DNA of 64,000 bases from a virus (taxonomy: Duplodnaviria; Heunggongvirae; Uroviricota; Caudoviricetes). The notes under the pieces are model-generated. The model saw only the letters and a program-made list of their open reading frames with translations. It was not told the DNA's origin and did no database searches. This document shows positions 1-18,594 of the stretch, piece after piece (the first letter of the stretch is position 1; every line of letters begins with the position of its first letter). The stretch is from IMG/VR virus record IMGVR_UViG_3300021979_000001, positions 2,948-66,947 of that record, one strand, 5' to 3'. The position numbers were made by a program, and so were the translations under genes.

Positions 1-27
1 ATAATATAAATTATAAATTGCAATCAT
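1..27 (-). CDS. Gly-X repeat peptide minigene, 5' end only
   Basis: An ATG at 27 follows the conserved 20-nt spacer. The leader reads MIAIYNLYY and the gene runs off the left edge. Confidence 0.4.
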
Positions 28-47
28 AATTGGTAACAGTTTGTTCG

Positions 48-308
48 TTAATTATAATAACCATCCCCTTCCCCAAAACCATAACCGTGCCCATCCCCAA
101 TACCAGTGCCAATACCAGTGCCAATACCAATATCAATAATAAAACCATGACCATGACCATGACCAAAACCATAACCATGACCATCACTATGACCATCACT
201 ATGCCCATTCCCATGCCCCGAATCATCCGAAAAACCATGACCAAACCCATATGTCTCGTTATTGGTTATTAATGGTATTGAATAATATAAATTATAAGTT
301 GCAACCAT
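48..308 (-). CDS. Gly-X repeat peptide minigene
   Basis: AAAGG SD-like box; leader MVATYNLYYSIPLITNNETYG; 86 aa; GxGx core; tail GDGYYN. Confidence 0.65.
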   Translation of the reverse strand: MVATYNLYYSIPLITNNETYGFGHGFSDDSGHGNGHSDGHSDGHGYGFGHGHGHGFIIDIGIGTGIGTGIGDGHGYGFGEGDGYYN

Positions 309-328
309 AATTGGTAACCTTTTGTTCG

Positions 329-547
329 TTAATTATAATAACCATCTTCATCTACATGACCAGACCCAAAACTAGAGCCAAGACCATATCCATGACCATA
401 ACCATCGCCAGGACCATCACCATTCCCCGAGCCATGACCAGACCCAAAACTAGAGCCATAATCATTACCAAAACCACGACCAAACCCATATGTCTCGTTA
501 TTGGTTATTAATGGTATTGAATAATATAAATTATAAGTTGCGACCAT
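329..547 (-). CDS. Gly-X repeat peptide minigene
   Basis: Uses the internal ATG of track ORF 329..763; leader MVATYNLYYSIPLITNNETYG; 72 aa; tail EDGYYN. Confidence 0.65.
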   Translation of the reverse strand: MVATYNLYYSIPLITNNETYGFGRGFGNDYGSSFGSGHGSGNGDGPGDGYGHGYGLGSSFGSGHVDEDGYYN

Positions 548-575
548 AATTGGTAACCTTTTGTCCTTTTGTCCT

Positions 576-809
576 TTAATCATAACCGTGTCCATAGCCA
601 TGACCATTTCCATTCCCAATCCCATTCCCACTCCCAAGCCCATACCCAAAACCATAACCATCGCTATCCCCATAGCCTTCGCCATAACCATTCCCATGAT
701 TTGAGCCATAACCAGAACCAGAACCAGACACCGTTCCACAATCATACCCATATGTCTCGTCATTGGTTATTAATGGCATCAAATAATATAAATTATATAT
801 TGTAACCAT
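576..809 (-). CDS. Gly-X repeat peptide minigene
   Basis: Leader MVTIYNLYYLMPLITNDETYG; 77 aa; tail GHGYD. Confidence 0.65.
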   Translation of the reverse strand: MVTIYNLYYLMPLITNDETYGYDCGTVSGSGSGYGSNHGNGYGEGYGDSDGYGFGYGLGSGNGIGNGNGHGYGHGYD

Positions 810-829
810 AACGGGTAACCTTTCTTTCT

Positions 830-1006
830 TTAACCATAGCCATCCCCATAATCAAACCCACGATCATACTCATGACACGACCTGGCCCGTCCCAAAACTA
901 GAGCCATATTCATTACCATGACCCGAACCATAACCATCATTAGGTGACGCATATTTAATATAATTTAATTTTATTTTATTTTATTTTATTTTATGTATAT
1001 ATTCAT
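830..1006 (-). pseudogene. Decayed Gly-X minigene (MNIYIK leader)
   Basis: ATG AAT ATA TAC ATA AAA TAA. An (ATTTT)5 expansion inside the leader creates the stop, and a frameshift follows before the GY tail. Confidence 0.5.
968..992. repeat. (ATTTT)5 microsatellite
   Basis: Five perfect pentamer units where intact paralogs have one. The extra 20 nt breaks the reading frame. Confidence 0.8.
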
Positions 1007-1087
1007 GATATGTTGTTCGAGTAAAACCAGAATCACTTATATTATAACTCAACTATTACATTATTGGGTAAAATCGTCTCCATCGAT

Positions 1088-1315
1088 TTAACCAAAACCA
1101 TGACCATAACCAAAACCATTTCCGTAACCGTCACCAACCCCATCACCATAACCATCCCCATAACCATAACCGTCACCATCTCCCTGACTATCCCCATAAC
1201 TATTGCCATAACCAAAACCATAACCTTCGCCATCACCATCGCCAGGACCATCACCATACTCGTCGTCATTGGTTATTAATGGTATCGAATAATATAAATT
1301 ATAAATTGTAACCAT
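1088..1315 (-). CDS. Gly-X repeat peptide minigene
   Basis: Leader MVTIYNLYYSIPLITNDDEYG; 75 aa. Confidence 0.65.
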   Translation of the reverse strand: MVTIYNLYYSIPLITNDDEYGDGPGDGDGEGYGFGYGNSYGDSQGDGDGYGYGDGYGDGVGDGYGNGFGYGHGFG

Positions 1316-1335
1316 AACTGGTAACCTTTTGTTCT

Positions 1336-1557
1336 TTAATAATAACCATCCTCTGATCCACCCCCAAGCCCATCTCCATCACTATCCCCATCCCCATACC
1401 CATAGCCATCTCCATCCCCATAACCATGACCATCGCCATCCCCATAACCATAACCATCCCCAGACCCATAACCCAACACCGTTCCACAATCATGCCCATG
1501 CGTCTCGTCATTGGTTATTAATGGTATCGACGAATATAAAATATAAATTATAACCAT
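1336..1557 (-). CDS. Gly-X repeat peptide minigene
   Basis: Uses Met4 of the track ORF; leader MVIIYILYSSIPLITNDETHG; 73 aa. Confidence 0.6.
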   Translation of the reverse strand: MVIIYILYSSIPLITNDETHGHDCGTVLGYGSGDGYGYGDGDGHGYGDGDGYGYGDGDSDGDGLGGGSEDGYY

Positions 1558-1577: not shown

Positions 1578-1847
1578 TTAATCATAACCCGCGCCATTCC
1601 CATGACCATTACCAATACCATGCCCACCGCCATAGCCACCACGCCCATTCCCTAAACCATGCCCATCACTATCCCCATAGCCAAACCCATTCCCATAATA
1701 TGAGACATAACCAGAACCAAAACCATTTCCAGAACCAGAACCATCACCATTCCCAATACCATCACCATTCCCCAAGCCATCACTATCATCATCGCCATCA
1801 TTGTATGAACTGGAATTGATATAATTTAATTTTATGGATATATTCAT
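1578..1847 (-). CDS. Gly-X repeat peptide minigene
   Basis: Leader MNISIKLNYINSSSYNDGDDD; 89 aa; tail GAGYD. Confidence 0.65.
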   Translation of the reverse strand: MNISIKLNYINSSSYNDGDDDSDGLGNGDGIGNGDGSGSGNGFGSGYVSYYGNGFGYGDSDGHGLGNGRGGYGGGHGIGNGHGNGAGYD

Positions 1848-1878: not shown

Positions 1879-2190
<312 letters not shown>

Positions 2191-2220: not shown

Positions 2221-2442
2221 TCATTTATAACCATAACCATAACCATCGCCAGAACCATCTCCATTCCTCTCCCCAGAACCATCACCATGACCATCACCAT
2301 AACCAATACCAGAACCATTCCCATAGCCATGACTATAACCAGTCCCATGCACCGAACCATCCGCAAAACCATGACCAAACCCATATGTCTCGTCATTGGT
2401 TATTAATGGTATCGAATAATATAAAATATAAATTGTAACCAT
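2221..2442 (-). CDS. Gly-X repeat peptide minigene
   Basis: Uses Met10 of the track ORF; leader MVTIYILYYSIPLITNDETYG; 73 aa. Confidence 0.65.
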   Translation of the reverse strand: MVTIYILYYSIPLITNDETYGFGHGFADGSVHGTGYSHGYGNGSGIGYGDGHGDGSGERNGDGSGDGYGYGYK

Positions 2443-2622
2443 AACTGATAATCTTTCTTTTTTAATCATAACAATCCCAGCCCCAAAACCATGACCGGAA
2501 CTATCATTATAAACAATACCGGAACCAGAATCATAATCATAATCATAATCACAACCAGAGCCATCATAGCGTGACCAGGATTTGATATAATTTAATTTTA
2601 TTTTATAGAGATAATCAGGATA
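2443..2622 (-). pseudogene. Decayed Gly-X minigene lacking a start codon
   Basis: The leader remnant LYKIKLNYIKSWSRYDG has no ATG, and the frame reads through into the next gene. Confidence 0.4.
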
Positions 2623-2675
2623 TGTTGCTCCGGTAAAAACTGAATAAATTATATTATAATTTAATTATTGCTTTA

Positions 2676-2903
2676 TTAGTAAAACTCCGATCCAGAACCA
2701 TGGCCCTTTCCATATTTCTTACCATATCCAGAACCAGAACCATAATCATACCCACACCCTTCACCATCGGCAGAACCATCGCGATTGCCATCCCCAGTGC
2801 CATACTCATTCCCATTGCCATGTCCATAGCTATATCCATATCCATGAACGGTGTCATGATCAGATATATTGATGTAAAATGACTGGGTTATGGATGATTT
2901 CAT
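2676..2903 (-). CDS. Gly-X repeat peptide minigene
   Basis: ATG after a TTTTACAGGTATGACC box; leader MKSSITQSFYINISDHDTVHG; 75 aa; tail GSGSEFY. Confidence 0.65.
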   Translation of the reverse strand: MKSSITQSFYINISDHDTVHGYGYSYGHGNGNEYGTGDGNRDGSADGEGCGYDYGSGSGYGKKYGKGHGSGSEFY

Positions 2904-2959: not shown

Positions 2960-3163
2960 TTAGCTATGATCACGGCCATAACCATGCCCATCCCCATAAC
3001 CATCACCATCAACATGACCACTCGCATAGCCACGACCATAACCAGAATCAAGACCATCACCATAACCGAAATCACGACCAGAACCAGAACCATTCCCATA
3101 GCCATATGTCTCGTGATTGGTTATTAATGGTATCACATAATATAACTCATATATTGTAACCAT
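2960..3163 (-). CDS. Gly-X repeat peptide minigene
   Basis: Leader MVTIYELYYVIPLITNHETYG; 67 aa; tail GRDHS. Confidence 0.65.
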   Translation of the reverse strand: MVTIYELYYVIPLITNHETYGYGNGSGSGRDFGYGDGLDSGYGRGYASGHVDGDGYGDGHGYGRDHS

Positions 3164-3183: not shown

Positions 3184-3381
3184 TTAATTATAGTCCGCGC
3201 CATTCTCATGACCATCACCGCAACCATCACCATAAATATGACCATAACCATGACCATAACCATATCCATGACCATCACCATGACCGAAACCACGACCAGA
3301 ACCAGAACCATTCCCATAGCCATATGTCTCGTGATTGGTTATTAATGGTATCACATAATATAACTCATATATTGTAACCAT
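3184..3381 (-). CDS. Gly-X repeat peptide minigene
   Basis: Leader MVTIYELYYVIPLITNHETYG. Three additional in-frame ATGs at 3393, 3405 and 3417 come from a 12-nt tandem repeat. Confidence 0.6.
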   Translation of the reverse strand: MVTIYELYYVIPLITNHETYGYGNGSGSGRGFGHGDGHGYGYGHGYGHIYGDGCGDGHENGADYN

Positions 3382-3437: not shown

Positions 3438-3641
3438 TTAATCATAACCCGCGCCATAGCCATGACCATTTCCATTCCCAAGCCCATTACCACTCCCAAG
3501 CCCTTTTCCAAAACAATAACCATCACTATCCCCATAGCCATCCCCATGACCATTCCCATGATTTGAACCATTCCCATAGCCATATGTCTCGTGATTGGTT
3601 ATTAATTGTATCGAATAATATAATTTATAAATTGTAACCAT
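3438..3641 (-). CDS. Gly-X repeat peptide minigene
   Basis: Leader MVTIYKLYYSIQLITNHETYG; 67 aa; tail GAGYD. Confidence 0.65.
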   Translation of the reverse strand: MVTIYKLYYSIQLITNHETYGYGNGSNHGNGHGDGYGDSDGYCFGKGLGSGNGLGNGNGHGYGAGYD

Positions 3642-3661
3642 AACTGGTAACCTTTTGTTTT

Positions 3662-3754
3662 TTAATCATAATCCGCGCCATGACCATTTCCATGGCCTGA
3701 ATTCTCATAGATTGCCCAGGATTTGATATAATTTAATTTTATGGATATATTCAT
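3662..3754 (-). CDS. Short Gly-X minigene (30 aa)
   Basis: Hand-translated as MNISIKLNYIKSWAIYENSGHGNGHGADYD. It falls below the ORF-track cutoff. Confidence 0.4.
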   Translation of the reverse strand: MNISIKLNYIKSWAIYENSGHGNGHGADYD

Positions 3755-3810
3755 AATTCACGCACCGGTAAAAACTGAATCACTTATATTATAATTCAAT
3801 TATTGATTGA

Positions 3811-4068
3811 TTAGTAAAACTCCGATCCAGAACCATGACCCTTTCCATATTTCTTACCATATCCAGAACCAAAACCATGTCCATAACCACAACCCTTGTC
3901 GGAACCGGAACCATTGCCATCATCGTATCCATCCCCAAAACCAGAACCAAAACCATCGCCATGACCATAACCATTTCCAGAACCATAACTGGAACCATAA
4001 CCAGAACCATCAAGTCCATTTCCTGGAAGATCGGATTTGTGATAATGTAACGTTATGGATATATTCAT
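3811..4068 (-). CDS. Gly-X repeat peptide minigene
   Basis: Uses Met20 of the track ORF; leader MNISITLHYHKSDLPGNG; 85 aa; tail GSGSEFY. Confidence 0.6.
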   Translation of the reverse strand: MNISITLHYHKSDLPGNGLDGSGYGSSYGSGNGYGHGDGFGSGFGDGYDDGNGSGSDKGCGYGHGFGSGYGKKYGKGHGSGSEFY

Positions 4069-4127: not shown

Positions 4128-4280
4128 TTAAAAACCATGACCCTTGTCAGAACTATAACCACAGCCATTATAATATATGCCATCACCATAATCAGAACCC
4201 CTTCCCATTCCCGAACCATAATTAGAATCATGTTCGGTCAGATCAGGATTTAGTTGACTTAATTTTATGGATGTATTCAT
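4128..4280 (-). CDS. Gly-X repeat peptide minigene
   Basis: Uses Met17 of the track ORF; leader MNTSIKLSQLNPDLTEHD; 50 aa. Confidence 0.5.
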   Translation of the reverse strand: MNTSIKLSQLNPDLTEHDSNYGSGMGRGSDYGDGIYYNGCGYSSDKGHGF

Positions 4281-4336: not shown

Positions 4337-4564
4337 TCATTTGCTATGGCTCGAACCATGACCATCCCCATCCCCATACCCAGCACCAGCACCAGCACCA
4401 TCGTCATGACCACTACCATTGCCATAACCATCACCATCCCCAGAACCATAACCAAAACCATAACCATTACCATAATGATAAGCAGAACTATAAGCAGAAC
4501 CATCACCATAAACATTATAGGTTTGATCAGGTTCTTGGAAATAGGTTTCAATTGATGTATTCAT
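4337..4564 (-). CDS. Gly-X repeat peptide minigene
   Basis: Leader MNTSIETYFQEPDQTYNVYG; 75 aa; tail GSSHSK. Confidence 0.65.
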   Translation of the reverse strand: MNTSIETYFQEPDQTYNVYGDGSAYSSAYHYGNGYGFGYGSGDGDGYGNGSGHDDGAGAGAGYGDGDGHGSSHSK

Positions 4565-4606: not shown

Positions 4607-4882
4607 TCATTTGCTATGGCTCGCACCATTACCAAAACCATAACATGCTCCATGACCACTACCATGACCACGACCATTGCCATAACCATGACCATTGCCA
4701 TAACCATAACCATGACCATAACCATCCCCACAACCAGAGCCATCCCTAGACCCATCCCCGTCGTCATCCCCATCCCCATCGCTATAACCCTCCCCATCGC
4801 CAGGACCAGAGCCATGACCAAAACCATAAATATTATCGGGTTGATCAGGTTCTTGGAAATAGGTTTCAATCGATGTATTCAT
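4607..4882 (-). CDS. Gly-X repeat peptide minigene
   Basis: Leader MNTSIETYFQEPDQPDNIYG; 91 aa; tail GASHSK. Confidence 0.65.
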   Translation of the reverse strand: MNTSIETYFQEPDQPDNIYGFGHGSGPGDGEGYSDGDGDDDGDGSRDGSGCGDGYGHGYGYGNGHGYGNGRGHGSGHGACYGFGNGASHSK

Positions 4883-4924: not shown

Positions 4925-5182
4925 TCATTTGCTATGGCTCGCACCATTACCATCACCATCCCCATCACCATTCCCTCTACCATACTCAATACCAAAACCA
5001 GTCCCAAAACCATGACCATTGCCATAACCATCACCATAACCATCCCCATTACCAGCCCCATCACCATAACCATAACCATAACCATAACCCTCCCCATCGC
5101 CATGACCAGAACCATGTCCATAACCATAAATATTATCGGGTTGATCAGGTTCTTGGAAATATGTTTCAATTGATGTATTCAT
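4925..5182 (-). CDS. Gly-X repeat peptide minigene
   Basis: Leader MNTSIETYFQEPDQPDNIYG; 85 aa; tail GASHSK. Confidence 0.65.
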   Translation of the reverse strand: MNTSIETYFQEPDQPDNIYGYGHGSGHGDGEGYGYGYGYGDGAGNGDGYGDGYGNGHGFGTGFGIEYGRGNGDGDGDGNGASHSK

Positions 5183-5234: not shown

Positions 5235-5519
5235 TCATTTTCTAATACCACGATTGCTGCCATATCTTCTGCCATATCCAAACGTATTACTAACCCTAAA
5301 CCCATTACCATTGCCATAACCATCACCAAAACCATGACCATAACCATCTCCCTCCCCATCCCCATCGCCAGAACCATCGGCAGAACCATCGCGATTGCCA
5401 TCCCCATAGCCATCCCCAGAACCATCCCCAGAACCATCCCCAGAACCATCACCATACATAAAATCATCGTTCGTTAGATGGGAATTAACGCAATAATACA
5501 ATTCAATCGAAATATTCAT
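5235..5519 (-). CDS. Gly-X repeat peptide minigene
   Basis: Leader MNISIELYYCVNSHLTNDDFMYG; 94 aa. Confidence 0.65.
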   Translation of the reverse strand: MNISIELYYCVNSHLTNDDFMYGDGSGDGSGDGSGDGYGDGNRDGSADGSGDGDGEGDGYGHGFGDGYGNGNGFRVSNTFGYGRRYGSNRGIRK

Positions 5520-5622: not shown

Positions 5623-5844
5623 CTATCCATCCCCATCCCCAAACCCATGCGCGGAACCATCCCTATAATCATACCCATAATCATACCCATAATCATACCC
5701 ATACCCAAAACCATACCCATACCCCTCACCATCGGCAGAACCATCGCGATTGCCATCCCCAGAGCCATAGTCATAGTCGTATCCATGATAGGTTTCAGGA
5801 ACATATATATTGATGTAAAACGACTGGTTTATGTATGGTTTCAT
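5623..5844 (-). CDS. Gly-X repeat peptide minigene (truncated relative to paralogs)
   Basis: Leader MKPYINQSFYINIYVPETYHG; 73 aa. TAG TGA is followed by more GY-coding sequence at 5550-5622. Confidence 0.6.
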   Translation of the reverse strand: MKPYINQSFYINIYVPETYHGYDYDYGSGDGNRDGSADGEGYGYGFGYGYDYGYDYGYDYRDGSAHGFGDGDG

Positions 5845-5898: not shown

Positions 5899-6147
5899 TC
5901 ATTTGTTATGGCTCTCACCATTACCAAATCCATAACATGTTCCATTCCCACTACCACGACCACGACCATTGCTATAACCATTACCATTGCCATAGCCATC
6001 ACCAAAACCATGACCATAATCATCTCCCTCCCCATCCCCATCGCCAGAACCATCCCCATCGCCAGGACCAGAGTCATGACCATACATAAAATCATCGTTC
6101 GTTAGATGGGAATTAACACAATAATACAATTCAATCGAAGTATTCAT
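5899..6147 (-). CDS. Gly-X repeat peptide minigene
   Basis: Leader MNTSIELYYCVNSHLTNDDFMYG; 82 aa; tail GESHNK. Confidence 0.65.
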   Translation of the reverse strand: MNTSIELYYCVNSHLTNDDFMYGHDSGPGDGDGSGDGDGEGDDYGHGFGDGYGNGNGYSNGRGRGSGNGTCYGFGNGESHNK

Positions 6148-6177: not shown

Positions 6178-6417
6178 TTATCCACACCCATGACCACGAC
6201 CATGACTAGAGCCAGAGTCAGAGCCAAATCCAGAGCCATAGCTATGTCCAACACCAAATCCAAAACCAAACCCACCATGATAGTCAGAACCAGACCCATC
6301 CCCGGAACCATCCCCATCCCCATAACCATGACCATTCCCAGAGCCATATTCGTATCCATGATAGGTTTCAGGAGCATATATATTGATGTAAAATGACTGG
6401 TTTATGTATGGTTTCAT
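6178..6417 (-). CDS. Gly-X repeat peptide minigene
   Basis: Leader MKPYINQSFYINIYAPETYHG; 79 aa; tail GRGHGCG. Confidence 0.65.
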   Translation of the reverse strand: MKPYINQSFYINIYAPETYHGYEYGSGNGHGYGDGDGSGDGSGSDYHGGFGFGFGVGHSYGSGFGSDSGSSHGRGHGCG

Positions 6418-6471: not shown

Positions 6472-6780
6472 TCATTTGCTAATACCACGATTGCTGCCAT
6501 ATCCAAAACCTGCTCCATTACCACTACCATGACCACGGCCATTATCATAACCACGGCCATTACCATAACCATGACCAGAACCAATCCCATTACCATCTCC
6601 ATTGCCACCACCATAACCATGCGCAGAACCATCACCATAATCATACCCATACCCCGAACCATCGGCAGAACCATCGCGATTGCCATCCCCAGAGCCATCC
6701 CCAGAACCATCACCATACATAAAATCATCGTTCGTTAGATGGGAATTAACGCAATAATACGGTTCAATCGAAGTATTCAT
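6472..6780 (-). CDS. Gly-X repeat peptide minigene
   Basis: Leader MNTSIEPYYCVNSHLTNDDFMYG; 102 aa. Confidence 0.65.
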   Translation of the reverse strand: MNTSIEPYYCVNSHLTNDDFMYGDGSGDGSGDGNRDGSADGSGYGYDYGDGSAHGYGGGNGDGNGIGSGHGYGNGRGYDNGRGHGSGNGAGFGYGSNRGISK

Positions 6781-6810: not shown

Positions 6811-7074
6811 TTATTCACACCCATGACCACGACCATAACCATAACCATAACTATCCTCAAACCCATTCCCATTCCCAAGCCCTCTCCCAAAACCATGACC
6901 TTCACCATTCCCCGAACCATACCCATTCCCAGAACCATCGCCATCGCCACCACTATGACCATCACCAGACCCATCCCCATAACCATGACCATCCCCAGAG
7001 CCATAGTCGTATCCATGATAGGTTTCAGGAATATATATATTGATGTAAAACGATTGGTTTATGTATGGTTTCAT
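6811..7074 (-). CDS. Gly-X repeat peptide minigene
   Basis: Leader MKPYINQSFYINIYIPETYHG; 87 aa; tail GRGHGCE. Confidence 0.65.
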   Translation of the reverse strand: MKPYINQSFYINIYIPETYHGYDYGSGDGHGYGDGSGDGHSGGDGDGSGNGYGSGNGEGHGFGRGLGNGNGFEDSYGYGYGRGHGCE

Positions 7075-7691: not shown

Positions 7692-7763
7692 TAATAGGTC
7701 ACTCATGTAAAAAATAAATCACTCATAATATTATTCAATTGTTGCGTTATTAATGAAAAATCA

Positions 7764-7883
7764 TCAATGACCCTTTCTATCCGCATCACCATAACCATTG
7801 CCATAGTTTGAGTCAAAACCAGAAACATTTTCAGATATATCATGATCATGGTAGTGGTAATACAATTCAATCGATATGTTCAT
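7764..7883 (-). CDS. Short Gly-X minigene (39 aa)
   Basis: Hand-translated as MNISIELYYHYHDHDISENVSGFDSNYGNGYGDADRKGH. Confidence 0.4.
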   Translation of the reverse strand: MNISIELYYHYHDHDISENVSGFDSNYGNGYGDADRKGH

Positions 7884-11446: not shown

Positions 11447-11698
11447 TTAGCTATTATCATGACCATTCCCATTGCCATAACCATCCCCCGCACTATCCCC
11501 ATAGCTGCCGCCATAACCATAACCACGACCATTACCATAACCATAGCCGCCGCCATAACCATAACCATGATCGGTGCCAACACCATAACCAGAACCATAG
11601 CCATGCTCATTGCCATGACCATAATCAACGCCGGGTCCATTATCGATTTCATGATCATGTGTGTTGATGTAAAACGACTGGTGTATGGATTGGTTCAT
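11447..11698 (-). CDS. Gly-X repeat peptide minigene
   Basis: Leader MNQSIHQSFYINTHDHEIDNG; 83 aa; tail GHDNS. Confidence 0.65.
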   Translation of the reverse strand: MNQSIHQSFYINTHDHEIDNGPGVDYGHGNEHGYGSGYGVGTDHGYGYGGGYGYGNGRGYGYGGSYGDSAGDGYGNGNGHDNS

Positions 11699-11756: not shown

Positions 11757-12026
11757 TTAGCTATTATCATGACCATTCCCATTCCCATTCCCATTGCCAT
11801 CCCCATCCCCCGCCCCCGCACTATCCCCATAGCCGCCGCCATAACCATAACAATGCGCGTCCCCAAATCCAGAGCCAAGACCATAACCATAACCATGATT
11901 GGTGCCAACACCATAACCAGAACCATAGCCATGCTCATTGCCATGACCATAATCAACGCCGGGTCCATTATCGATTTCATGATCATGTGTGTTGATGTAA
12001 AACGACTGGTGTATGGATTGGTTCAT
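11757..12026 (-). CDS. Gly-X repeat peptide minigene
   Basis: About 150 nt of 5'UTR, leader and early core are identical to 11447..11698; 89 aa. Confidence 0.65.
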   Translation of the reverse strand: MNQSIHQSFYINTHDHEIDNGPGVDYGHGNEHGYGSGYGVGTNHGYGYGLGSGFGDAHCYGYGGGYGDSAGAGDGDGNGNGNGNGHDNS

Positions 12027-12084
12027 GAAACGGTCTTACCTGTAAAAACGAAACCACTTATGTCGTAATTCAATTGTTGCATTA

Positions 12085-12204
12085 TTAGCTATTATCATGA
12101 CCATTCCCATTGCCATGCCCATTACAATAACCAAAACAATATTCATTGTCATTTTGGTTTAGATTAGTATTGATGTAAAAAATGTTGGATTATGGTGTGT
12201 TCAC
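12085..12204 (-). pseudogene. Decayed Gly-X minigene
   Basis: GTG replaces the ATG and there is an in-frame TAA at codon 5 (GTG AAC ACA CCA TAA). The remainder reads SNIFYINTNLNQ...GHGNGNGHDNS. Confidence 0.5.
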
Positions 12205-12270
12205 AGTAATTCGTTCAATCATGTATAAAATAACTAAATTATGCCTATTATAACTTAAATTGTTGCATCA

Positions 12271-12513
12271 TTAACCATACCCCGATCCATTACTATGATC
12301 TGTCAGATAACCATCACCATCACCAAACGCGGAACCATCACCACTTCCATCGCCATGGCCGTAACCATGACCACGTGCAGACCCAAACCGATCACCTAGA
12401 CTATACTTTTTATCATCATTATACTCATTGCCAGCACCATAACCAAAACCATAACCAGAAAACTTTTCGGATTGATCATATTGGGTATAATTTAATTTTA
12501 TGGATGTATTCAT
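12271..12513 (-). CDS. Gly-X repeat peptide minigene
   Basis: Leader MNTSIKLNYTQYDQSEKFSG; 80 aa. Confidence 0.6.
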   Translation of the reverse strand: MNTSIKLNYTQYDQSEKFSGYGFGYGAGNEYNDDKKYSLGDRFGSARGHGYGHGDGSGDGSAFGDGDGYLTDHSNGSGYG

Positions 12514-12616: not shown

Positions 12617-12907
12617 TTAATTATGATCACTGCCATTCCCATTACCATAACCAAAACCATGACCATTCCCAAGCCCTCTCCCAAAACCATGACCTTCACC
12701 ATTCCCCGAACCATACCCATTCCCAATACCATCGCCATCGCCATCACTATGACCATCACCAGACCCATCGCCAAAACCATAACCATTACTATCGCCATAA
12801 CCCAAAACGCCCCTAATACCACCACCATGCTTAGATGTTAATCTTTTGTAATATACATGTTTGGAAAGATCAGATGTATGGTAATTTAATTTTATGGATA
12901 GTTTCAT
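12617..12907 (-). CDS. Gly-X repeat peptide minigene
   Basis: Leader MKLSIKLNYHTSDLSKH; 96 aa; tail GSDHN. Confidence 0.6.
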   Translation of the reverse strand: MKLSIKLNYHTSDLSKHVYYKRLTSKHGGGIRGVLGYGDSNGYGFGDGSGDGHSDGDGDGIGNGYGSGNGEGHGFGRGLGNGHGFGYGNGNGSDHN

Positions 12908-12969: not shown

Positions 12970-13185
12970 TTAACTACAGTCATGCCCTGGACTCTCACCA
13001 TAACCATAACCATTCCCAACACCATTGCCATCCCCATCACCATAACCAGAACCGAAACCGTCCCCCTCATTATAACCATTCCCATTACCAGAACCGAAAC
13101 CATCGCCATTAGCAAAAATAGAACCATAAAGATTTCTCTTTAGGTCCGCATTGTATAAATAAAACAAATTAATTGGTGTATTCAT
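12970..13185 (-). CDS. Gly-X repeat peptide minigene
   Basis: Leader MNTPINLFYLYNADLKRN; 71 aa. Confidence 0.6.
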   Translation of the reverse strand: MNTPINLFYLYNADLKRNLYGSIFANGDGFGSGNGNGYNEGDGFGSGYGDGDGNGVGNGYGYGESPGHDCS

Positions 13186-13243: not shown

Positions 13244-13465
13244 TTAGTCAAAAAAACTAACGGAACCATTCCCATAGCCATAACTAGAACCATTGTCCAA
13301 ACCCTCGTTATAATCTTTTCCAGAACTATAACCATTTCCATAATCATAACCAAACCCGGCCCCATAGCCAAAACACCTGTAACTGGTATCTGCACCGGAA
13401 CCGAAACCAGAATCATTTATGGATAGATCAGACTCTTGATGATTTAATTTTACGAATATAGTCAT
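13244..13465 (-). CDS. Gly-X repeat peptide minigene
   Basis: Leader MTIFVKLNHQESDLSINDSG; 73 aa. Confidence 0.55.
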   Translation of the reverse strand: MTIFVKLNHQESDLSINDSGFGSGADTSYRCFGYGAGFGYDYGNGYSSGKDYNEGLDNGSSYGYGNGSVSFFD

Positions 13466-13517: not shown

Positions 13518-13745
13518 TCAATCACCATGACCCTTACCATCTCCAAAACCATACCCGAAACTATAACCAAACACCGAACCAATACCCTCGCCAACACCAA
13601 TACGGAAATCATTACCATCCCCATTCCCATAACCAAAACCATAACTTTCCCCAGTATAATAACCCGAACTCGGTTCATTACCCAACCACCCATCGGGTGT
13701 TAGGTCGGTGTTATAACAATAATACATTTTTATTGGCGTATTCAT
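13518..13745 (-). CDS. Gly-X repeat peptide minigene
   Basis: Uses Met8 of the track ORF; leader MNTPIKMYYCYNTDLTPDG; 75 aa. Confidence 0.55.
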   Translation of the reverse strand: MNTPIKMYYCYNTDLTPDGWLGNEPSSGYYTGESYGFGYGNGDGNDFRIGVGEGIGSVFGYSFGYGFGDGKGHGD

Positions 13746-13812: not shown

Positions 13813-14043
13813 TTACGTATCCCCATAATCATAACCAAATCCAGAACCCTTACCATAACCATTTCCCTGCTCGCCACCATACCCCGCACCAACCCCAGAA
13901 CCGTAACTATCTCCATTATTATAACCAGCACTGGCCCCCATCCCATAACTCAAACCATTACCAAAACCCAAACCAGACCCATCCCAGGAGACATCTTTTT
14001 TTAGATAGGGTTCGTGATAACACCAGTCGATAGCGGTATTCAT
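13813..14043 (-). CDS. Gly-X repeat peptide minigene
   Basis: Uses Met4 of the track ORF; leader MNTAIDWCYHEPYLKKD; 76 aa. Confidence 0.55.
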   Translation of the reverse strand: MNTAIDWCYHEPYLKKDVSWDGSGLGFGNGLSYGMGASAGYNNGDSYGSGVGAGYGGEQGNGYGKGSGFGYDYGDT

Positions 14044-14091
14044 AATTATCATCTCGGTAAAAAATGAAAGTTCAAATCACATATATTTCAA

Positions 14092-14287
14092 TTATTCGGA
14101 ATTACACCCCAGAGTGCCATACCTAAACCCAAAACCAAAACCATATTCATTCTCACCACCATATCCCTGACCGGAACACGAGCCATAACTATGACCATGA
14201 CTATGACCGGAACTATCGGTATGATCCGGTTCATCACCTGTTTCATTAGTGTGGTCATCGACAAAACAATAACATGTTTATATTCAT
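14092..14287 (-). pseudogene. Frameshifted Gly-X minigene
   Basis: ATG AAT ATA AAC, then a 1-nt shift before CYCFVDDHTNETGDEPD...GY core. The length of 196 nt is not a multiple of 3. Confidence 0.45.
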
Positions 14288-14313
14288 GTTATAATAAGAG
14301 CCATTTGAATAAT

Positions 14314-14550
14314 TTACGATATACGTCCATGACCATGACCATTGCCCGCCCCAAAACCATAATTATAACCATGCTCATTACCGGCGCTATCCCCAGCACC
14401 ATCCCCCATGCCATAACCTGCATGATACTCATTCCCATGACCCAACCCCGGACTATGATCATCCCCATAATCATCCCCGGCACCGGAACCAGAATTATCA
14501 GTTTTTAGATCGGGGTTATCGCAGTAATGAAACATAATCGATGGTTTCAT
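14314..14550 (-). CDS. Gly-X repeat peptide minigene
   Basis: Uses Met15 of the track ORF; leader MKPSIMFHYCDNPDLKTDNSG; 78 aa. Confidence 0.6.
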   Translation of the reverse strand: MKPSIMFHYCDNPDLKTDNSGSGAGDDYGDDHSPGLGHGNEYHAGYGMGDGAGDSAGNEHGYNYGFGAGNGHGHGRIS

Positions 14551-14581: not shown

Positions 14582-14824
14582 TTATTCACCATCTACGTTG
14601 CCATGACCATTGCCCGTCCCAAAACCATAACTATAACCATACCCATCATCCACACCATACCAGGCACCATCACCATTGCCATAACCCACGTCATATTGAT
14701 TCCCATAACCTTTCCCCGGACTATAATCATCCCCAGGATCATACCCGGCACATGAACCAGAGCCAGAACCATCGGTTATTGGATCGGGTTCATAGCAATA
14801 ATTAAATGCAATCGGTAGATTCAT
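14582..14824 (-). CDS. Gly-X repeat peptide minigene
   Basis: Leader MNLPIAFNYCYEPDPITDGSG; 80 aa. Confidence 0.6.
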   Translation of the reverse strand: MNLPIAFNYCYEPDPITDGSGSGSCAGYDPGDDYSPGKGYGNQYDVGYGNGDGAWYGVDDGYGYSYGFGTGNGHGNVDGE

Positions 14825-14877: not shown

Positions 14878-15183
14878 TTATTCATAATTACGCCCAGTGC
14901 CATGCCCATCCCCATACCCAAAACCATCACCATCACTAGACACATAACCATCACCATCAACATAACCAATACCATTGCCAGCCCCATCACCATCACCATC
15001 AACATAACCAATACCATTGCCAGCCCCATCACCCATGCCATAACCTTCGTCATAATCATTCCCATAACCCTGCCCCGGATTATGATAATCCCCAGAATCA
15101 TAACCGGCACCGGAAACGGAACCATCACCATCACTTACTAGATCGGGGTTATTGCAATAATTAAATGTAATTGATGGTTTCAT
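14878..15183 (-). CDS. Gly-X repeat peptide minigene
   Basis: Leader MKPSITFNYCNNPDLVSDGDG; 101 aa. Confidence 0.6.
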   Translation of the reverse strand: MKPSITFNYCNNPDLVSDGDGSVSGAGYDSGDYHNPGQGYGNDYDEGYGMGDGAGNGIGYVDGDGDGAGNGIGYVDGDGYVSSDGDGFGYGDGHGTGRNYE

Positions 15184-15243: not shown

Positions 15244-15444
15244 TCATTCACCCCTATTCCCATCACCACGACCATAACCCTCACCAGAAACAAAACCTTT
15301 ACCTGAACCATTCCCAAATCCATACACATTACCATAAGATATACCAAAACCATCCTCGGTGCCATGATCAGAGCCATGACCAAAACCATAAACATTGTTG
15401 GGTATATCATGGTTTTGGAAATATGATTCAATCGATATATTCAT
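15244..15444 (-). CDS. Gly-X repeat peptide minigene
   Basis: Uses Met6 of the track ORF; leader MNISIESYFQNHDIPNNVYG; 66 aa. Confidence 0.6.
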   Translation of the reverse strand: MNISIESYFQNHDIPNNVYGFGHGSDHGTEDGFGISYGNVYGFGNGSGKGFVSGEGYGRGDGNRGE

Positions 15445-15512: not shown

Positions 15513-15770
15513 CTATTCAGGTTCACCACTTGATCCATCCCAGTTTCCACGACTCGAACCATTACCAAATCCAAAAGCCGAACAATAACCATTTTTGTGA
15601 ATAAAAATATGTTCATACGTTTTGCCATCACCATAACCATAACCATAACCAGAACCATATCCATAACCATTACCAAATCCAAAAACCGAACCATTATCTG
15701 AAACAATTTCCGAAACAATTTCATTTGGGCTGCTATCATCGCAATATAATAAATTTATCAGTTCATACAT
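15513..15770 (-). CDS. Gly-X repeat peptide minigene (divergent)
   Basis: Leader MYELINLLYCDDSSPNE; 85 aa. Confidence 0.5.
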   Translation of the reverse strand: MYELINLLYCDDSSPNEIVSEIVSDNGSVFGFGNGYGYGSGYGYGYGDGKTYEHIFIHKNGYCSAFGFGNGSSRGNWDGSSGEPE

Positions 15771-15989: not shown

Positions 15990-16238
15990 TTAATCCGATC
16001 CATGACCGAAACCAGCACCATATCCAGTCCCAAAACCATCCCCATCACTAGAGCCATGACCATGACCATGACCATCTTTATAGTCTTGACCAGACCCGAC
16101 ACCATTGCCATCCCCATCACCTAGACCATAACCTTTGCCATCCCCTTTACCATAGCCTTCACCATCGCCATCATCATAACTGATTTCCTTTTGATCGGCG
16201 GTATTTATGTAAAAAGATAGGATTACGTATGTGTTCAT
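15990..16238 (-). CDS. Gly-X repeat peptide minigene
   Basis: Leader MNTYVILSFYINTADQKE; 82 aa. Confidence 0.55.
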   Translation of the reverse strand: MNTYVILSFYINTADQKEISYDDGDGEGYGKGDGKGYGLGDGDGNGVGSGQDYKDGHGHGHGSSDGDGFGTGYGAGFGHGSD

Positions 16239-16290: not shown

Positions 16291-16530
16291 TCAATAAGCA
16301 CCGTCACCATAACCATGCCCCCAATGCCCAGTCATATTTGTATCCCCAATATCAAACCCATTCCCATTCCCATTCCCTTTTCCAAAACCAAAACCATAAC
16401 CATCACTATCCCCATTATGATGGACATAACTAAGACTATAACCTTTCCAATTGTCATACCCATCATACCCATCACTATCATCATATTCACAGATATGGAC
16501 ATAATAATACAATATTATGTTAATGTGCAT
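16291..16530 (-). CDS. Gly-X repeat peptide minigene (divergent)
   Basis: Uses Met6 of the track ORF; leader MHINIILYYYVHICEYDDSDG; 79 aa. Confidence 0.5.
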   Translation of the reverse strand: MHINIILYYYVHICEYDDSDGYDGYDNWKGYSLSYVHHNGDSDGYGFGFGKGNGNGNGFDIGDTNMTGHWGHGYGDGAY

Positions 16531-16578
16531 TACGAGTTCCCACATGTAAATAACATAATCAAACAGTTAATATAATAT

Positions 16579-16839
16579 CTATTTCATGGTCATATAAAAA
16601 TGATCTGTTTCATTACCATCATTGGCACCAGCCCCATGTCCAACACCGTTACTATCACCTAAATCATCACCCGAAGCAGAATCATCCCCCATACCAGAAT
16701 TATTTGTATGTCCAGAACCACTTCCTCTACCATATCCAAACACATGTCCTTTTTTATGTCCATGCGCAAACCCACGACCATAGTGATACCAATTACTATA
16801 TACATCGACACAATAAATTACTTTTATGGGCAATTTCAT
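16579..16839 (-). CDS. Gly-X repeat peptide minigene (divergent)
   Basis: Uses Met4 of the track ORF; leader MKLPIKVIYCVDVYSNW; 86 aa. Confidence 0.5.
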   Translation of the reverse strand: MKLPIKVIYCVDVYSNWYHYGRGFAHGHKKGHVFGYGRGSGSGHTNNSGMGDDSASGDDLGDSNGVGHGAGANDGNETDHFYMTMK

Positions 16840-16901
16840 TATTAACATCCAATCAATTAAATAGATAAACCGTAATAATTATAATTATTTCTTACACTAA
16901 T

Positions 16902-17180
16902 TCACCATGATTTTCTGACCCATTTATGCGAGCCGTAACCAATATTATAACTTGACCCATATCCATTTCCCTGTCCATCAGCATAACCATAACCATGCCC
17001 TGCCCCTGAAAGATAACTAACCCCTAACGTTGGGCTTGTATCCCCAACATATGCAGAGCCATCCCCCTGCCCGTCACCTTTAACAGAACCATCCTCATAC
17101 TCCGAACCAGTTCTAGTCCCGGAAAAGTTGTTATAAAGATCGGCATTTCGGTAAAAACACGATTTTATGGTGGGTTTCAT
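16902..17180 (-). CDS. Gly-X repeat peptide minigene (divergent)
   Basis: Uses Met4 of the track ORF; leader MKPTIKSCFYRNADLYNN; 92 aa. Confidence 0.5.
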   Translation of the reverse strand: MKPTIKSCFYRNADLYNNFSGTRTGSEYEDGSVKGDGQGDGSAYVGDTSPTLGVSYLSGAGHGYGYADGQGNGYGSSYNIGYGSHKWVRKSW

Positions 17181-17238
17181 ACTTATCACACTTGCAAAAA
17201 GTTGGATTAGTCATAAAATAAACACAATGGTGGCTGCA

Positions 17239-17484
17239 TTACCCGAAACTATCACCGAAATAAAAACCGTAAGCGTGACCACATCCAAGACCCTCACAAT
17301 TACCAGATTTAGCATTTAATCCATAATCCTGACCATGACCGTAAACGGCCCAATATCGAATTACGTAACTTATTTCATAATGAGAACCACTTCCCTGCCC
17401 CTCGCCATAACCACCCCCATTACGAATTAAAGAACCATTACCCGAACGTTTTATGTAATATAAATCTATTGGTATATTTGCCAT
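17239..17484 (-). CDS. Gly-X repeat peptide minigene (divergent)
   Basis: Leader MANIPIDLYYIKRSGNG; 81 aa. Confidence 0.5.
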   Translation of the reverse strand: MANIPIDLYYIKRSGNGSLIRNGGGYGEGQGSGSHYEISYVIRYWAVYGHGQDYGLNAKSGNCEGLGCGHAYGFYFGDSFG

Positions 17485-17533
17485 TTGACTTCGCCAAGTA
17501 AAAATGGATATATGGAGATAATCATTTCATTGT

Positions 17534-17728
17534 TCACTCTGCCATAGCACCATGCCCATAGCCATAACCACCATCAAACACGTTCCCATACCCATTACTA
17601 TCCCCATCCTCATACCCATCGCTAGAGTCAGACCCGTATCCATACCCGGTTCCATCACTATTGCCATATCGATAGCTATTATTATGTTGATCAACTGTGT
17701 AATATAGTAGTGTTATAGGTAGTTTCAT
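17534..17728 (-). CDS. Gly-X repeat peptide minigene
   Basis: Leader MKLPITLLYYTVDQHNN; 64 aa. Confidence 0.55.
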   Translation of the reverse strand: MKLPITLLYYTVDQHNNSYRYGNSDGTGYGYGSDSSDGYEDGDSNGYGNVFDGGYGYGHGAMAE

Positions 17729-17826
17729 TGTTTTATTACCAAGTTGGGTTCAACCGAAATAATACTGGTAAGTATATCAATCATACTCATATATCATTTA
17801 ATAATATAAGGGATAATGTAGTTTGG

Positions 17827-18213
17827 TTAGTCCTGTCCTAACGCATCTGACGAAAACGGATGTGAATTATCCATATGCTGACTGCATAACCATTCAATTC
17901 CAGTAATGGAGTAAACACCATTAACTGCGGGCGCGCCGCAATAATGACATTTTTTGTGTGCCATTTCGGACGTTCCGTCGTGTTTAGCACGTTTTTTACT
18001 GAACTTGGACTTTGTAAAATGCCCCGCTTTCATCTGGGTAACGGATTTACCCATTGCTCGGTAATTTGCCCCATTAATTCCTGTTGTTTTGGTTTGGTGT
18101 TTTGCTTTACACCCTTTACAACAATACTGCGCCCATCCTCGATTGCGATCTGCAATTCTTGCTTCAAAATCAGTTTTACACCATAAGCAAGAAAATGTTC
18201 CAGTGGCCGCCAT
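17827..18213 (-). CDS. Cys-rich zinc-ribbon-like small protein embedded in the array
   Basis: GGAG SD 9 nt upstream of the ATG. Contains CLWC, CCKGC and CHYC...C..H motifs; 128 aa and basic. Confidence 0.6.
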   Translation of the reverse strand: MAATGTFSCLWCKTDFEARIADRNRGWAQYCCKGCKAKHQTKTTGINGANYRAMGKSVTQMKAGHFTKSKFSKKRAKHDGTSEMAHKKCHYCGAPAVNGVYSITGIEWLCSQHMDNSHPFSSDALGQD

Positions 18214-18348
18214 AGGTCAAATCTCCATAATGGGGGGTAAAAATCATAAACAATTGTAGTATTTTTGGTTATATAAAGCAAAGATTAAAATTATTGTTTT
18301 TTGATGATTGGAATGGCATATAACACGGTGTCATCAATAACTTATTTC

Positions 18349-18594
18349 TCAATCAACCAAGTTTGCAATACCAAAACCATAACCGTTACTATCGCCTTCG
18401 GTATTACCTGGACCATCCCCATAACCTTCCCCATTACTTACACTATTACTAAATCCAAAACCATGCCCTGAACCATTACCAAAACTACGACCACAACCAC
18501 CCCCGTATTCTGATATAGCAATATCACCTACGGAATCATCATCACCTGGATAAAAATCGACGATATGATATGATAGTATGACAGTTTTCATCAT
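18349..18594 (-). CDS. Gly-X repeat peptide minigene (first in transcription order, divergent)
   Basis: Leader MMKTVILSYHIVDFYPGDDD; 81 aa. Confidence 0.5.
   Translation of the reverse strand: MMKTVILSYHIVDFYPGDDDSVGDIAISEYGGGCGRSFGNGSGHGFGFSNSVSNGEGYGDGPGNTEGDSNGYGFGIANLVD

Follow-up and report, generated by a model that had tools for sequence, protein, structure and literature searches.

Why should some 18.6 kb of a phage genome be so poor in G on one strand, and how can the same DNA stay open over long distances in several reading frames? The region in question, positions 1-18594, lies at the left end of a 64,000-nucleotide (nt) stretch from a tailed virus (Caudoviricetes; positions 2,948 to 66,947 of IMG/VR record IMGVR_UViG_3300021979_000001). 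This stretch, hereafter the window, covers 64 kb of a 457-kb megaphage genome, the source record being 457,165 bp long. Our analysis identifies positions 1-18594 as a tandem, co-oriented array of small minus-strand genes for peptides with (Gly-X)n cores, and the strand asymmetry is very probably the nucleotide footprint of this encoded array, that is, a by-product of coding.

Gene architecture, strand skew and open frames

The array comprises 56 intact genes of 50-103 amino acids (aa), approximately eight short or decayed copies, which lie in the wider spacers between genes, and one unrelated 128-aa open reading frame (ORF). The genes encode a conserved N-terminus of about 18-20 aa (the leader) followed by a core of 30-80 aa with Gly at every second residue. 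The leader consensus is M-[NK]-x-[SP]-I-x-[LQ]-x-[YF]-[CY]-[IV]-N...D..E/D, and in alignments A1 and A3 M1 never varies, I5 occurs in 37 of 45 sequences and position 9 is aromatic in 41 of 45. Gly makes up 39.4% of core residues, followed by D (11.2%), Y (11.0%), S (8.8%), N (7.0%), H (4.8%) and F (3.7%); another Gly stands at +2 from 76% of the core Gly residues, and X, the partner residue, is in most cases Asp, Tyr, Ser, Asn, His or Phe. Of the 56 Gly-rich open frames, 54 contain an in-frame ATG that leads into the common leader motif, although the +1 frame is equally open. Most units also share an upstream motif, TTATTTTTAC-AGGTGTG-(about 10 nt)-ATG, with a Shine-Dalgarno-like AGGTG inside it; this conserved element, 40 nt upstream of most array genes (e.g., 5845-5884 and 9249-9288), can be written TTATTTTTAC-AGGTGTG-ACC.ATT-ATG. 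The members have their own start, ribosome-binding site and stop, a common motif and a single orientation, as in a tandem array of paralogous protein-coding genes, and the ATG, the Shine-Dalgarno-like site and the N-terminal motif are kept in phase with the GGN codons across paralogs that are only 25-50% identical. Neither sigma-70-promoter-like sites (97 versus 93 ± 9.5) nor terminator-like sites (11 versus 11.7) are enriched in the array, which suggests polycistronic transcription or else the use of a signal particular to the phage. The array extends past the window at position 1; two shorter public contigs, which match the left end of the window at 100% and 99.86% identity, indicate at least eight further genes beyond it, and the whole array amounts to at least 21 kb, or about 4.6% of the megaphage genome.

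A first-pass annotation of this DNA, made from its letters and a list of its ORFs, had described an extreme strand asymmetry, and this was borne out: the GC skew of the plus strand lies between -0.23 and -0.58 in all 1-kb intervals of 1-18000, and between -0.15 and +0.16 throughout after 19000. The accompanying description of the plus strand as almost G-free holds locally, the cores having 9.4% G on this strand, but not overall, as G accounts for 11.8% of positions 1-18594 (19.3% in the rest of the window). The longest G-free run of the plus strand measures 98 nt, and those of 30 nt or more cover 15.5% of the array versus 1.7% elsewhere. On the coding (minus) strand, the cores consist of 38.6% G, 32.4% T, 19.6% A and 9.4% C, codon positions 1 and 2 being 56% and 46% G and position 3 being 68% T. 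The skew is confined to the cores, and the leaders are opposite in sign: the coding-strand GC skew amounts to +0.609 for cores, as against -0.118 for leaders and +0.196 for spacers. A skew that is limited to cores and stops at the array boundary, at about 18.6 kb, does not have the form of a replication-associated skew.

The idea that all three frames on both strands stay open did not survive closer inspection, since only four frames are open in the cores and the other two are dense in stops. Stops per 1000 core codons number 0, 6.0 and 125.6 in sense frames 0, +1 and +2, and 5.7, 124.3 and 9.8 in the antisense frames; ordinary genes carry 103 and 32 stops per 1000 in the two stop-dense frames (sense +2 and antisense +1). 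Four frames are open in 22 of the 54 cores and all six in none, and nowhere in the array do six open stretches of at least 50 codons coincide. The overlapping ORFs themselves are real: four such stretches overlap at 39.5% of array bases, a share that falls to 10% in the remainder of the window and to 1.3% after shuffling. Taken as a whole, the array has 54-75 stops per 1000 codons in each frame and does not fall below the remainder of the window (47-59), since its leaders and spacers are rich in stops. As for the closed frames, almost every repeat brings in a stop: GGT-GAT, GGT-AAT and GGT-AGT carry TGA, TAA and TAG in sense frame +2, and GGT-TAT and GGT-CAT yield TAA and TGA in one antisense frame (CCA/TAA and CCA/TGA). 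The four open frames are the true peptide (frame 0), sense +1 and two antisense frames, with shadow ORFs of the kind VMVMV, TITITI and HNHNH. Stop counts in the open frames equal those of synonymous-codon-permuted controls (19 versus 18.5, 18 versus 18 and 31 versus 35), and the openness thus follows from the peptides and their codons. The causal chain first proposed, in which repetitive cores give rise to skew and skew to overlapping shadow ORFs, is upheld. It also carries a caution, as gene callers will give three to four overlapping ORFs per unit in such regions, only one of which is real.

Codon content, proposed hexamer turnover and rival causes of the skew

Codon content had been named as the null expectation for the skew, and it explains most of it but not all. 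In our null model, the core peptides were kept and synonymous codons were drawn from the window's 51 other genes (1000 replicates). The recoded cores had a GC skew of 0.491 ± 0.008 (maximum 0.515 in 1000 replicates) against 0.609 observed, and an AT skew of -0.080 ± 0.008 against -0.247 observed; uniform synonymous codon choice gave a core GC skew of 0.392. Amino-acid content supplies about four fifths of the core GC skew, and the remainder is a core-specific preference for T at the third codon position. Among two-fold pyrimidine-ending codons, the T-ending form accounts for 91.8% in cores, 76.6% in leaders and 71.2% in other genes (Fisher p = 4e-18 for cores against leaders and 2e-64 against other genes). 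Because leaders and cores are carried on the same transcripts, neither a transcription-wide mutational bias nor an expression-level effect explains this excess.

Core DNA is a degenerate hexamer, GGN-NAT, in which G fills the first two codon positions, T the third, and C is nearly absent; its repetition produces a G+T-rich coding strand, a G-poor plus strand and a GG every 6 nt. In the model that we propose, cores would expand and contract by duplication, slippage or unequal exchange of 6-nt multiples, copying codons along with residues, and synonymous sites would remain dominated by a few founder hexamers rather than drifting to genome codon usage. Hexamers of the form GGN-NAT account for 704 of the 1253 Gly-led hexamers, the commonest being GGT-TAT, GGG-GAT, GGT-CAT and GGT-GAT, and Tyr, Asp, His and Asn correspond exactly to the four NAT codons. 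Tandem Repeats Finder reported 90 rows in the array, with periods that are multiples of 6 (6-48) except for 3, 300, 309 and 328, and some of the repeat copies are 97-100% identical. In the closest paralog pairs, gaps are mostly or all multiples of 6 nt (6/6; 6/6/18/6/6; 6/60/6; also 12), and some are of 1, 4, 9 and 51 nt; gaps were read from the closest pairs only, and an all-against-all alignment with cheap gaps inflated identities. Gly codon choice also differs among genes (chi-square 271 versus 160 ± 17 in permutations), the share of GGT ranging from 0.23 to 0.79. We infer that the T-ending excess of the cores probably stems from this turnover of hexamers by duplication and slippage. As a separate observation, the partner residues overwhelmingly belong to the NAY families (Tyr, Asp, Asn and His), nearly always as NAT codons, and these are the four codon families read by queuosine-modified tRNAs.

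Comparable arrays elsewhere bear on this model. A codon-pattern scan of IMG/VR found, among the matches listed (120 contigs), tandem arrays of 3-13 small genes with a short N-terminus and a (Gly-X)n core (L185, L088, L182, L101, L135, L132, L113, L190, L164 and L117). Gly codon use is near-exclusive within each array: GGC in 155 of 155 cases in L101, GGT in 169 of 169 in L088, GGC in 92% in L185 and GGA in 68% in L164. A larger and unrelated tandem array of at least 35 small genes occupies positions 1-16297 of L003 (ENA ERZ22302045 NODE_122, an 88,895-bp contig), which was found by protein search and not by codon pattern. In its genes, a variable (Gly-X)n core is flanked by two conserved parts, an N-terminal segment of 40 aa (MLTDWLIYLDFLEENNQNTSFLRLITPITFGIIETHNYNY) and the C-terminus YSNSYDEEH; the share of T-ending codons is 96.2% in cores versus 76.8%, the core GC skew is 0.76, and the cores repeat the pattern of four open and two closed frames. 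L004 and L005 are listed with L003 for this second array, and two sigma-70-like genes lie within the L003 array at 1344-3126.

Several points weigh against hexamer turnover as the source of the T-ending excess. The same numbers would result if T-ending or C-poor cores were selected for at the level of the nucleotides or the RNA. The Gly codon tracks the next base, GGG standing before purines (GGGGAT 88, GGGAAT 54) and GGT before pyrimidine-initial codons (GGTTAT 166, GGTCAT 87; e.g., 1384-1461 and 11769-11810), and this dependence cuts the stops in sense frame +2 from about 498 to 399. In addition, cores favor NAY over NAR codons (D:E 5.5:1, N:K 6.1:1 and H:Q 11.8:1, versus about 1:1 in other genes), which could reflect selection at the protein level or the same constraint at the DNA level; neither this excess nor the next-base choice of Gly codon is predicted by a simple founder model. 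Moreover, the IMG/VR arrays were retrieved with a pattern that contains NAT, and only their Gly codon choice, not their T-ending bias, counts as independent evidence.

The strongest competitor holds that the T-ending, C-poor bias of the cores is maintained by selection and not by repeat turnover, the candidate agents being translation speed on reiterated codons, tRNA supply (including queuosine-dependent NAU decoding) and avoidance of internal Shine-Dalgarno-like contexts, of out-of-frame stop contexts or of recombinogenic or structured sequence. It draws on the restriction of the bias to cores and its recurrence in the unrelated L003 array, on the reduction of +2-frame stops by the choice of Gly codon, and on the use of Y, D, N and H, the four NAY residues, 5-12 times more than their NAR neighbors. 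However, predicted mRNA stability is the same with or without the bias, the window contains no tRNA genes (and no Rfam families), and different arrays have fixed different Gly codons, including the C-ending GGC at 92-100%, which founder effects fit better. We regard maintenance by selection as a possibility of some weight, albeit an unlikely one.

At the other extreme, the skew might follow wholly from amino-acid composition and the phage's ordinary codon usage, and the recoded skew of 0.49 is indeed already far beyond that of the window's ordinary genes (-0.16 to +0.22). This is improbable, because the observed 0.609 lies about 15 standard deviations above the recoded mean, the AT skew is also off, and the leaders of the same genes show near-ordinary codon usage.

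The recurrence of GG doublets had further raised the idea of two-tetrad G-quadruplexes (G4) or other non-B structures, and it may be asked whether the periodicity has been selected for such structures, whether of the mRNA or of coding-strand DNA in the course of replication or transcription, that would regulate expression, replication or packaging. The periodicity was confirmed: the spacing of successive core G-runs is exactly 6 nt in 70% of cases and 12 nt in 11%, and GG co-occurrence reaches 4.0-4.6 times expectation at lags of 6, 12, 18 and 24 nt, compared with about 1.0-1.4 in the rest of the window. Since GG opens every Gly codon, no (Gly-X)n peptide could be encoded without this period. 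The relaxed scan for motifs with two-G runs, suggested at the outset, marks 34.6% of the array minus strand, compared with 0.1% of its plus strand and about 1% outside the array; the array minus strand thus offers two-tetrad motifs, an inevitable outcome of Gly at alternate codons. Canonical motifs (four runs of at least three G with loops of 1-7 nt) number only five in the 18.6 kb of minus strand, versus 0-1 for comparison, and 75% of G runs (959 of 1284) are exactly two long. An idealized GGUNAU x4 (GGUUAUGGUCAUGGUGAUGG) forms no G4 in the G4 energy model of ViennaRNA, which is an RNA model and crude for two-tetrad structures. In the same program, a G4 enters the minimum-energy fold of 11 of 54 core mRNAs by way of GGG or GGGG runs, but recodings give 6-11 of 54, and the 325 runs of at least three G compare with 277-340 in synonymous recodings. 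G4 propensity is therefore not above that of synonymous recodings, and the G4 idea finds no support. Depletion of C would lessen the competition from G:C hairpins, a point in favor of G4 formation; against this, the sense RNA without a G4 term already folds as its recoded controls do (-25.07 versus -25.46 ± 0.31 kcal per 100 nt), the antisense strand being nearly structure-free (-6.0 kcal per 100 nt). The sister arrays, moreover, use GGC (20% C, skew of about 0.25) or GGT only, without runs of three G, and thus neither such runs nor C depletion is conserved in arrays of this kind. Selection for non-B structure is, on these grounds, very improbable. Avoidance of C as a means of lowering mRNA structure was ruled out by the equality of folding energy with the recoded controls. 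The skew and the G-run periodicity are without a demonstrated function of their own, and scans based on skew or on G4 motifs will flag such blocks, both signals being forced by Gly-X coding.

In its periodicity, the array resembles the C9orf72 (GGGGCC)n repeat, in which the 6-nt DNA period equally matches a Gly-X dipeptide period, one strand is G-rich, several frames are open and the G4 question arises. The GGGGCC repeat has runs of four G and is open in all six frames, whereas the array consists of GGN-NAT with mostly two-G runs, has two stop-dense frames and is a degenerate repeat inside ATG-initiated genes.

Hardly credible, finally, is the view that the region is non-coding satellite or 'stuffer' DNA, or an effect of replication-strand skew, with accidental ORFs: a low-complexity, hexamer-repetitive sequence with several open frames and a few decayed copies would suit it, but the start codon, Shine-Dalgarno-like site and leader motif hold their phase with GGN across divergent paralogs, the informative gaps among the closest paralogs are multiples of 6 nt, the skew reverses sign in leaders and ends with the array, unlike a replication skew, and other arrays retain conserved N- and C-terminal peptide segments.

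Members of the array and neighboring genes

The members of the array are listed in Table 1. An (ATAAA)n microsatellite at 955-1000 is the source of the stops in the leader of the copy at 810-1087, making it a pseudogene within the array, and the gene at 1879-2190 contains a poly-Asp stretch of about 12 residues, specified by a (GAT)n run at 2059-2144. The ORF at 17827-18213 has a sub-threshold zinc-ribbon-like match (TIGR02605, 12.1 bits versus a cutoff of 31.3) and also matches phrog_17137 and phrog_2526, both of which are families without an assigned function.

Table 1. Genes, decayed copies and spacers of the array, by position in the window.
Positions	Strand	Feature	Length (aa)	N-terminus or remark
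48..308	-	array gene	86	MVATYNLYYSIPLI...
329..547	-	array gene	72	MVATYNLYY...
576..809	-	array gene	77	MVTIYNLYY...
810..1087	-	decayed copy		leader (..IKLNYIKY..) broken by stops in (ATAAA)n run; core remnant frameshifted
1088..1315	-	array gene	75	MVTIYNLYY...
1336..1557	-	array gene	73	MVIIYILYS...
1578..1847	-	array gene	89	MNISIKLNY...
1879..2190	-	array gene	103	MNLYIKLNY...
2221..2442	-	array gene	73	MVTIYILYY...
2443..2675	-	ATG-less copy		YKIKLNYIKSW..GSG..; open in frame with next gene
2676..2903	-	array gene	75	MKSSITQSFYIN...
2960..3163	-	array gene	67	MVTIYELYY...
3184..3381	-	array gene	65	MVTIYELYY...; upstream in-frame MVTG x3 repeat also open
3438..3641	-	array gene	67	MVTIYKLYY...
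3642..3810	-	spacer with short copy		MNISIKLNYIKSWAIYENSGHGNGHGADYD
3811..4068	-	array gene	85	MNISITLHY...
4128..4280	-	array gene	50	MNTSIKLSQ...
4337..4564	-	array gene	75	MNTSIETYF...
4607..4882	-	array gene	91	MNTSIETYF...
4925..5182	-	array gene	85	MNTSIETYF...
5235..5519	-	array gene	94	MNISIELYYCVN...
5623..5844	-	array gene	73	MKPYINQSFYIN...
5899..6147	-	array gene	82	MNTSIELYYCVN...
6178..6417	-	array gene	79	MKPYINQSFYIN...
6472..6780	-	array gene	102	MNTSIEPYYCVN...
6811..7074	-	array gene	87	MKPYINQSFYIN...
7128..7382	-	array gene	84	MKPYISQYFGIN...
7437..7691	-	array gene	84	MKPYISQYFGIN...; substitutions and 6-nt gaps only relative to the 7128 copy
7692..7943	-	spacer with short copy		MNISIELYYHYHDHD..GNGYGDADRKGH
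7944..8144	-	array gene	66	MNTSIELYYCVN...
8202..8459	-	array gene	85	MSSSIKLNY...
8521..8763	-	array gene	80	MPVSIKQSFYI...
8764..8957	-	spacer with short copy		MTIYINQLFYINTDYHKPDYALGDGHGNGDGAVF
8958..9248	-	array gene	96	MTPYINQYFCIH...
9300..9575	-	array gene	91	MNLPINQYFCIH...
9628..9882	-	array gene	84	MNLPINQYFCIH...
9938..10153	-	array gene	71	MNLPINQYFCIH...
10203..10457	-	array gene	84	MTTYINQMFCIN...
10514..10771	-	array gene	85	MNPPITQSFYIN...
10820..11086	-	array gene	88	MKSSITQSFYIN...
11143..11388	-	array gene	81	MNQSIDQSFYIN...
11447..11698	-	array gene	83	MNQSIHQSFYIN...
11757..12026	-	array gene	89	MNQSIHQSFYIN...
12027..12270	-	spacer with decayed copy		..NIFYINTNLNQNDNEYCFGYCNGHGNGNGHDNS
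12271..12513	-	array gene	80	MNTSIKLNY...
12617..12907	-	array gene	96	MKLSIKLNY...
12970..13185	-	array gene	71	MNTPINLFY...
13244..13465	-	array gene	73	MTIFVKLNH...
13518..13745	-	array gene	75	MNTPIKMYYCYN...
13813..14043	-	array gene	76	MNTAIDWCY...
14044..14313	-	spacer with decayed copy		..SSGHSHGHSYGSCSGQGYGGENEYGFGFGF..
14314..14550	-	array gene	78	MKPSIMFHYCDN...
14582..14824	-	array gene	80	MNLPIAFNYCYE...
14878..15183	-	array gene	101	MKPSITFNYCNN...
15244..15444	-	array gene	66	MNISIESYF...
15513..15770	-	array gene	85	MYELINLLYC...
15990..16238	-	array gene	82	MNTYVILSFYIN...
16291..16545	-	divergent array gene	84	length as first-ATG ORF; likely start MHINIILYYYV
16579..16839	-	divergent array gene	86	MKLPIKVIYC...
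16902..17180	-	divergent array gene	92	MKPTIKSCFY...
17239..17484	-	divergent array gene	81	MANIPIDLYY...
17534..17728	-	array gene	64	MKLPITLLYY...
17827..18213	-	non-family ORF	128	between first and second array genes; unskewed, skew drops here
18349..18591	-	first (most upstream) array gene	80	MKTVILSYH...

The rest of the window is given to replication and nucleotide metabolism, with genes for the large and small subunits of ribonucleotide reductase (RNR), a DnaB-type helicase and a primase-like protein, and it also encodes an endolysin and two radical SAM proteins. The helicase shares about 50% identity with its counterparts in the jumbo phages Phosso, Atu_ph07 and PA5oct; a megablast search of positions 19000-43000 against 50,697 GenBank phages gave no match, relatives being found at the protein level only. 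The RNR large subunit is split into two plus-strand ORFs, at 43934-45673 and 45818-47092, about 145 nt apart, and these correspond to the N- and C-terminal portions of a single PHROG family, an arrangement that may reflect a split gene, an intron or a problem of assembly. The radical SAM proteins are encoded on the minus strand at 21579-22667 (362 aa) and 50881-51966 (361 aa). Two more minus-strand genes encode a potassium-channel-like protein with a weak match to the pore region (27743-28828) and a 465-aa phrog_11908 protein (31290-32687) whose distant phage relatives are annotated as SPFH/prohibitin-like.

Affinities and possible roles of the peptides

The array peptides appear, from the searches made, to be an orphan family. 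Among 1.84 billion representative proteins, a leader profile matched eight, and those retrieved were the phage's own array genes. The whole-peptide profile (A1) gave 216 matches among 5.8 billion proteins and led to L003; 17 were retrieved, and those inspected, the phage's own genes aside, resemble the array peptides in composition only, with (GYGDG)n tails on DUF7666 and other unrelated N-terminal domains, which is no evidence of homology. A tblastn search of GenBank phages with one array peptide found no match, low-complexity masking having probably removed the query, and a single peptide, the DUF6948 neighbor and a subfamily alignment (A2) had no match in IMG/VR or the JGI metagenomes. An NCBIfam scan of eight array peptides returned only a compositional match to a serine-rich protein, far below the cut-off, and the literature searched held no description of Gly-rich tandem arrays in jumbo phages and nothing relevant on DUF7666. 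With AlphaFold2, A1 gave no fold and a mean predicted local distance difference test score of 43.5, with values below 50 for residues 19-82 and moderate values for the first 10 or so residues only; the peptides are acidic and predicted to be disordered. A (GYGDGS)n tail, which looks like a reusable module, follows unrelated N-terminal domains in many proteins from metagenomes (e.g., P0003, P0007, P0006, P0016, P0057 and P0065), including DUF7666 (PF24703) and small 'GAC'-motif proteins.

Judged by their sequences, architecturally similar arrays recur in many other phage contigs. Those in L003, L185, L088, L182, L101, L135 and L132 share with the present array its architecture, co-orientation, shadow ORFs and proximity to replication or recombination genes, and they differ in having 3-35 copies rather than about 60 or more and in their Gly codon usage and skew. 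Their identifiable neighbors are RecE/RecT, SSB, DNA methyltransferase and RNR, which resembles the replication-module setting of the window. A single leader family common to all arrays was considered and dropped, as local profile hidden Markov model (HMM) comparison showed no significant similarity: the best E-value of the leader HMM against the N-termini of other arrays was 0.09 (database of 130), and that of a shuffled control was 0.85. Because the N-termini are not detectably homologous and in some arrays are only 4-8 residues long, the core itself can be argued to be the functional part. Tentatively, then, the peptides may act through their composition, as flexible polyanions rich in Tyr, Asp and Gly that are made alongside the products of replication and nucleotide-metabolism genes; we think that they are neither RiPP (ribosomally synthesized and post-translationally modified peptide) precursors nor structural repeats.

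In mycobacterial PE_PGRS proteins, silk fibroin (GAGAGS) and the collagen-like proteins of phages and bacteria, reiterated Gly codons likewise produce skew and spurious ORFs, and the repeats grow via slippage or unequal recombination; these are long single proteins with Gly-Gly-X, Gly-Ala or Gly-X-Y periods, whereas the array encodes about 60 separate peptides of 65-105 aa with a strict Gly-X period, polar or aromatic X and a conserved N-terminal tag. Eukaryotic clusters of Gly/Tyr-rich proteins, such as the high-Gly-Tyr keratin-associated proteins, the nematode GYGG NLP/CNC peptides, the FUS-like [G/S]Y[G/S] domains and the Gly/His-rich squid-beak and shepherin peptides, similarly combine Gly with Tyr, His, Ser, Asn and Asp, disorder, small size and tandem amplification. 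They have Gly-Gly runs together with signal peptides or RNA-binding domains, belong to a different kingdom and show no homology to the array peptides; the comparison is one of composition only.

A different role would follow if the leader were a capsid-targeting sequence like that of the T4 internal proteins, with the peptides being packed, trimmed by a Glu-specific prohead protease and injected. The leader presumably bears some likeness to the T4 signal MKTYQEFIAE, and the replicative helicase is closest to those of jumbo phages. The small proteins of the array do share a short conserved N-terminal peptide while differing otherwise, and the sequence x-x-E closes many leaders ahead of the core (..NDE/TYG, ..VPE/TYH and ..DHE/TGSG), the form expected of a prohead-protease site being hydrophobic-x-Glu. 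Yet this acidic boundary residue is not universal, other leaders ending in x-x-D or K and some in nothing comparable; the window ORFs that were scanned, a part of the total, include no head or protease genes; and the array and its analogues sit in replication or recombination modules. Capsid targeting is thus doubtful. The T-even internal-protein loci encode many small, diverse phage proteins with only a short N-terminal motif in common (PMC3012670), and the array resembles them as a cluster of this kind. The T-even proteins, however, are folded, mostly basic and few per genome, whereas the array encodes low-complexity, acidic, predicted disordered bodies in about 60 copies.

The leader/core architecture also invites comparison with RiPP precursors, in which case the hypervariable cores would be matured by the nearby radical SAM enzyme. 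RiPP arrays (e.g., the cyanobacterial Gly-rich-repeat GRRM system, Nif11/NHLP precursors and prochlorosins) likewise consist of adjacent precursors with a conserved leader and a hypervariable core and have a radical SAM gene nearby, and the enzyme encoded at 21579-22667, 3 kb from the array, is weakly similar to SPASM/twitch peptide maturases. However, all of its family matches are far below cut-off, and its 79 homologues (24-58% identity), which come from large-phage contigs of lakes and seawater, have no GxGxG-rich ORF in the flanks fetched (up to 10 kb). Genes of opposite orientation lie between the enzyme and the array, the peptides match no NCBIfam precursor family, and cores of 30-80 low-complexity residues are longer than, and atypical of, those of RiPPs. 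The analogous arrays, whose N-termini may be as short as 4-8 aa, adjoin RecE/RecT/SSB, methylase or RNR genes and not maturases. Maturation of the cores as RiPPs is therefore quite improbable, and the nearby radical SAM gene is very probably not a partner of the array.

To return to the array as a footprint of (Gly-X)n coding, it would offer a clean natural example of evolution by hexamer slippage inside coding DNA, and the restriction of the T-ending bias to the cores provides an internal clock, by which the cores would be younger or more homogenized than the leaders of the same genes. We speculate, without strong conviction, that the array belongs, as the largest member so far, to a recurrent and hitherto undescribed class of phage arrays that join an N-terminal tag to (Gly-X)n disordered acidic peptides with cores shaped by hexamer slippage, and that supply a polyanionic, aromatic pool defined by composition. 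If so, this pool might serve as a nucleic-acid mimic, a condensate scaffold or a decoy in early infection; the NAT-only codon pattern, with its four queuosine-decoded amino acids, would be part of how the array is expressed; and slippage would be so quick that synonymous sites never equilibrate. Should the arrays share a function, they would constitute an unrecognized and apparently common accessory system of phages.

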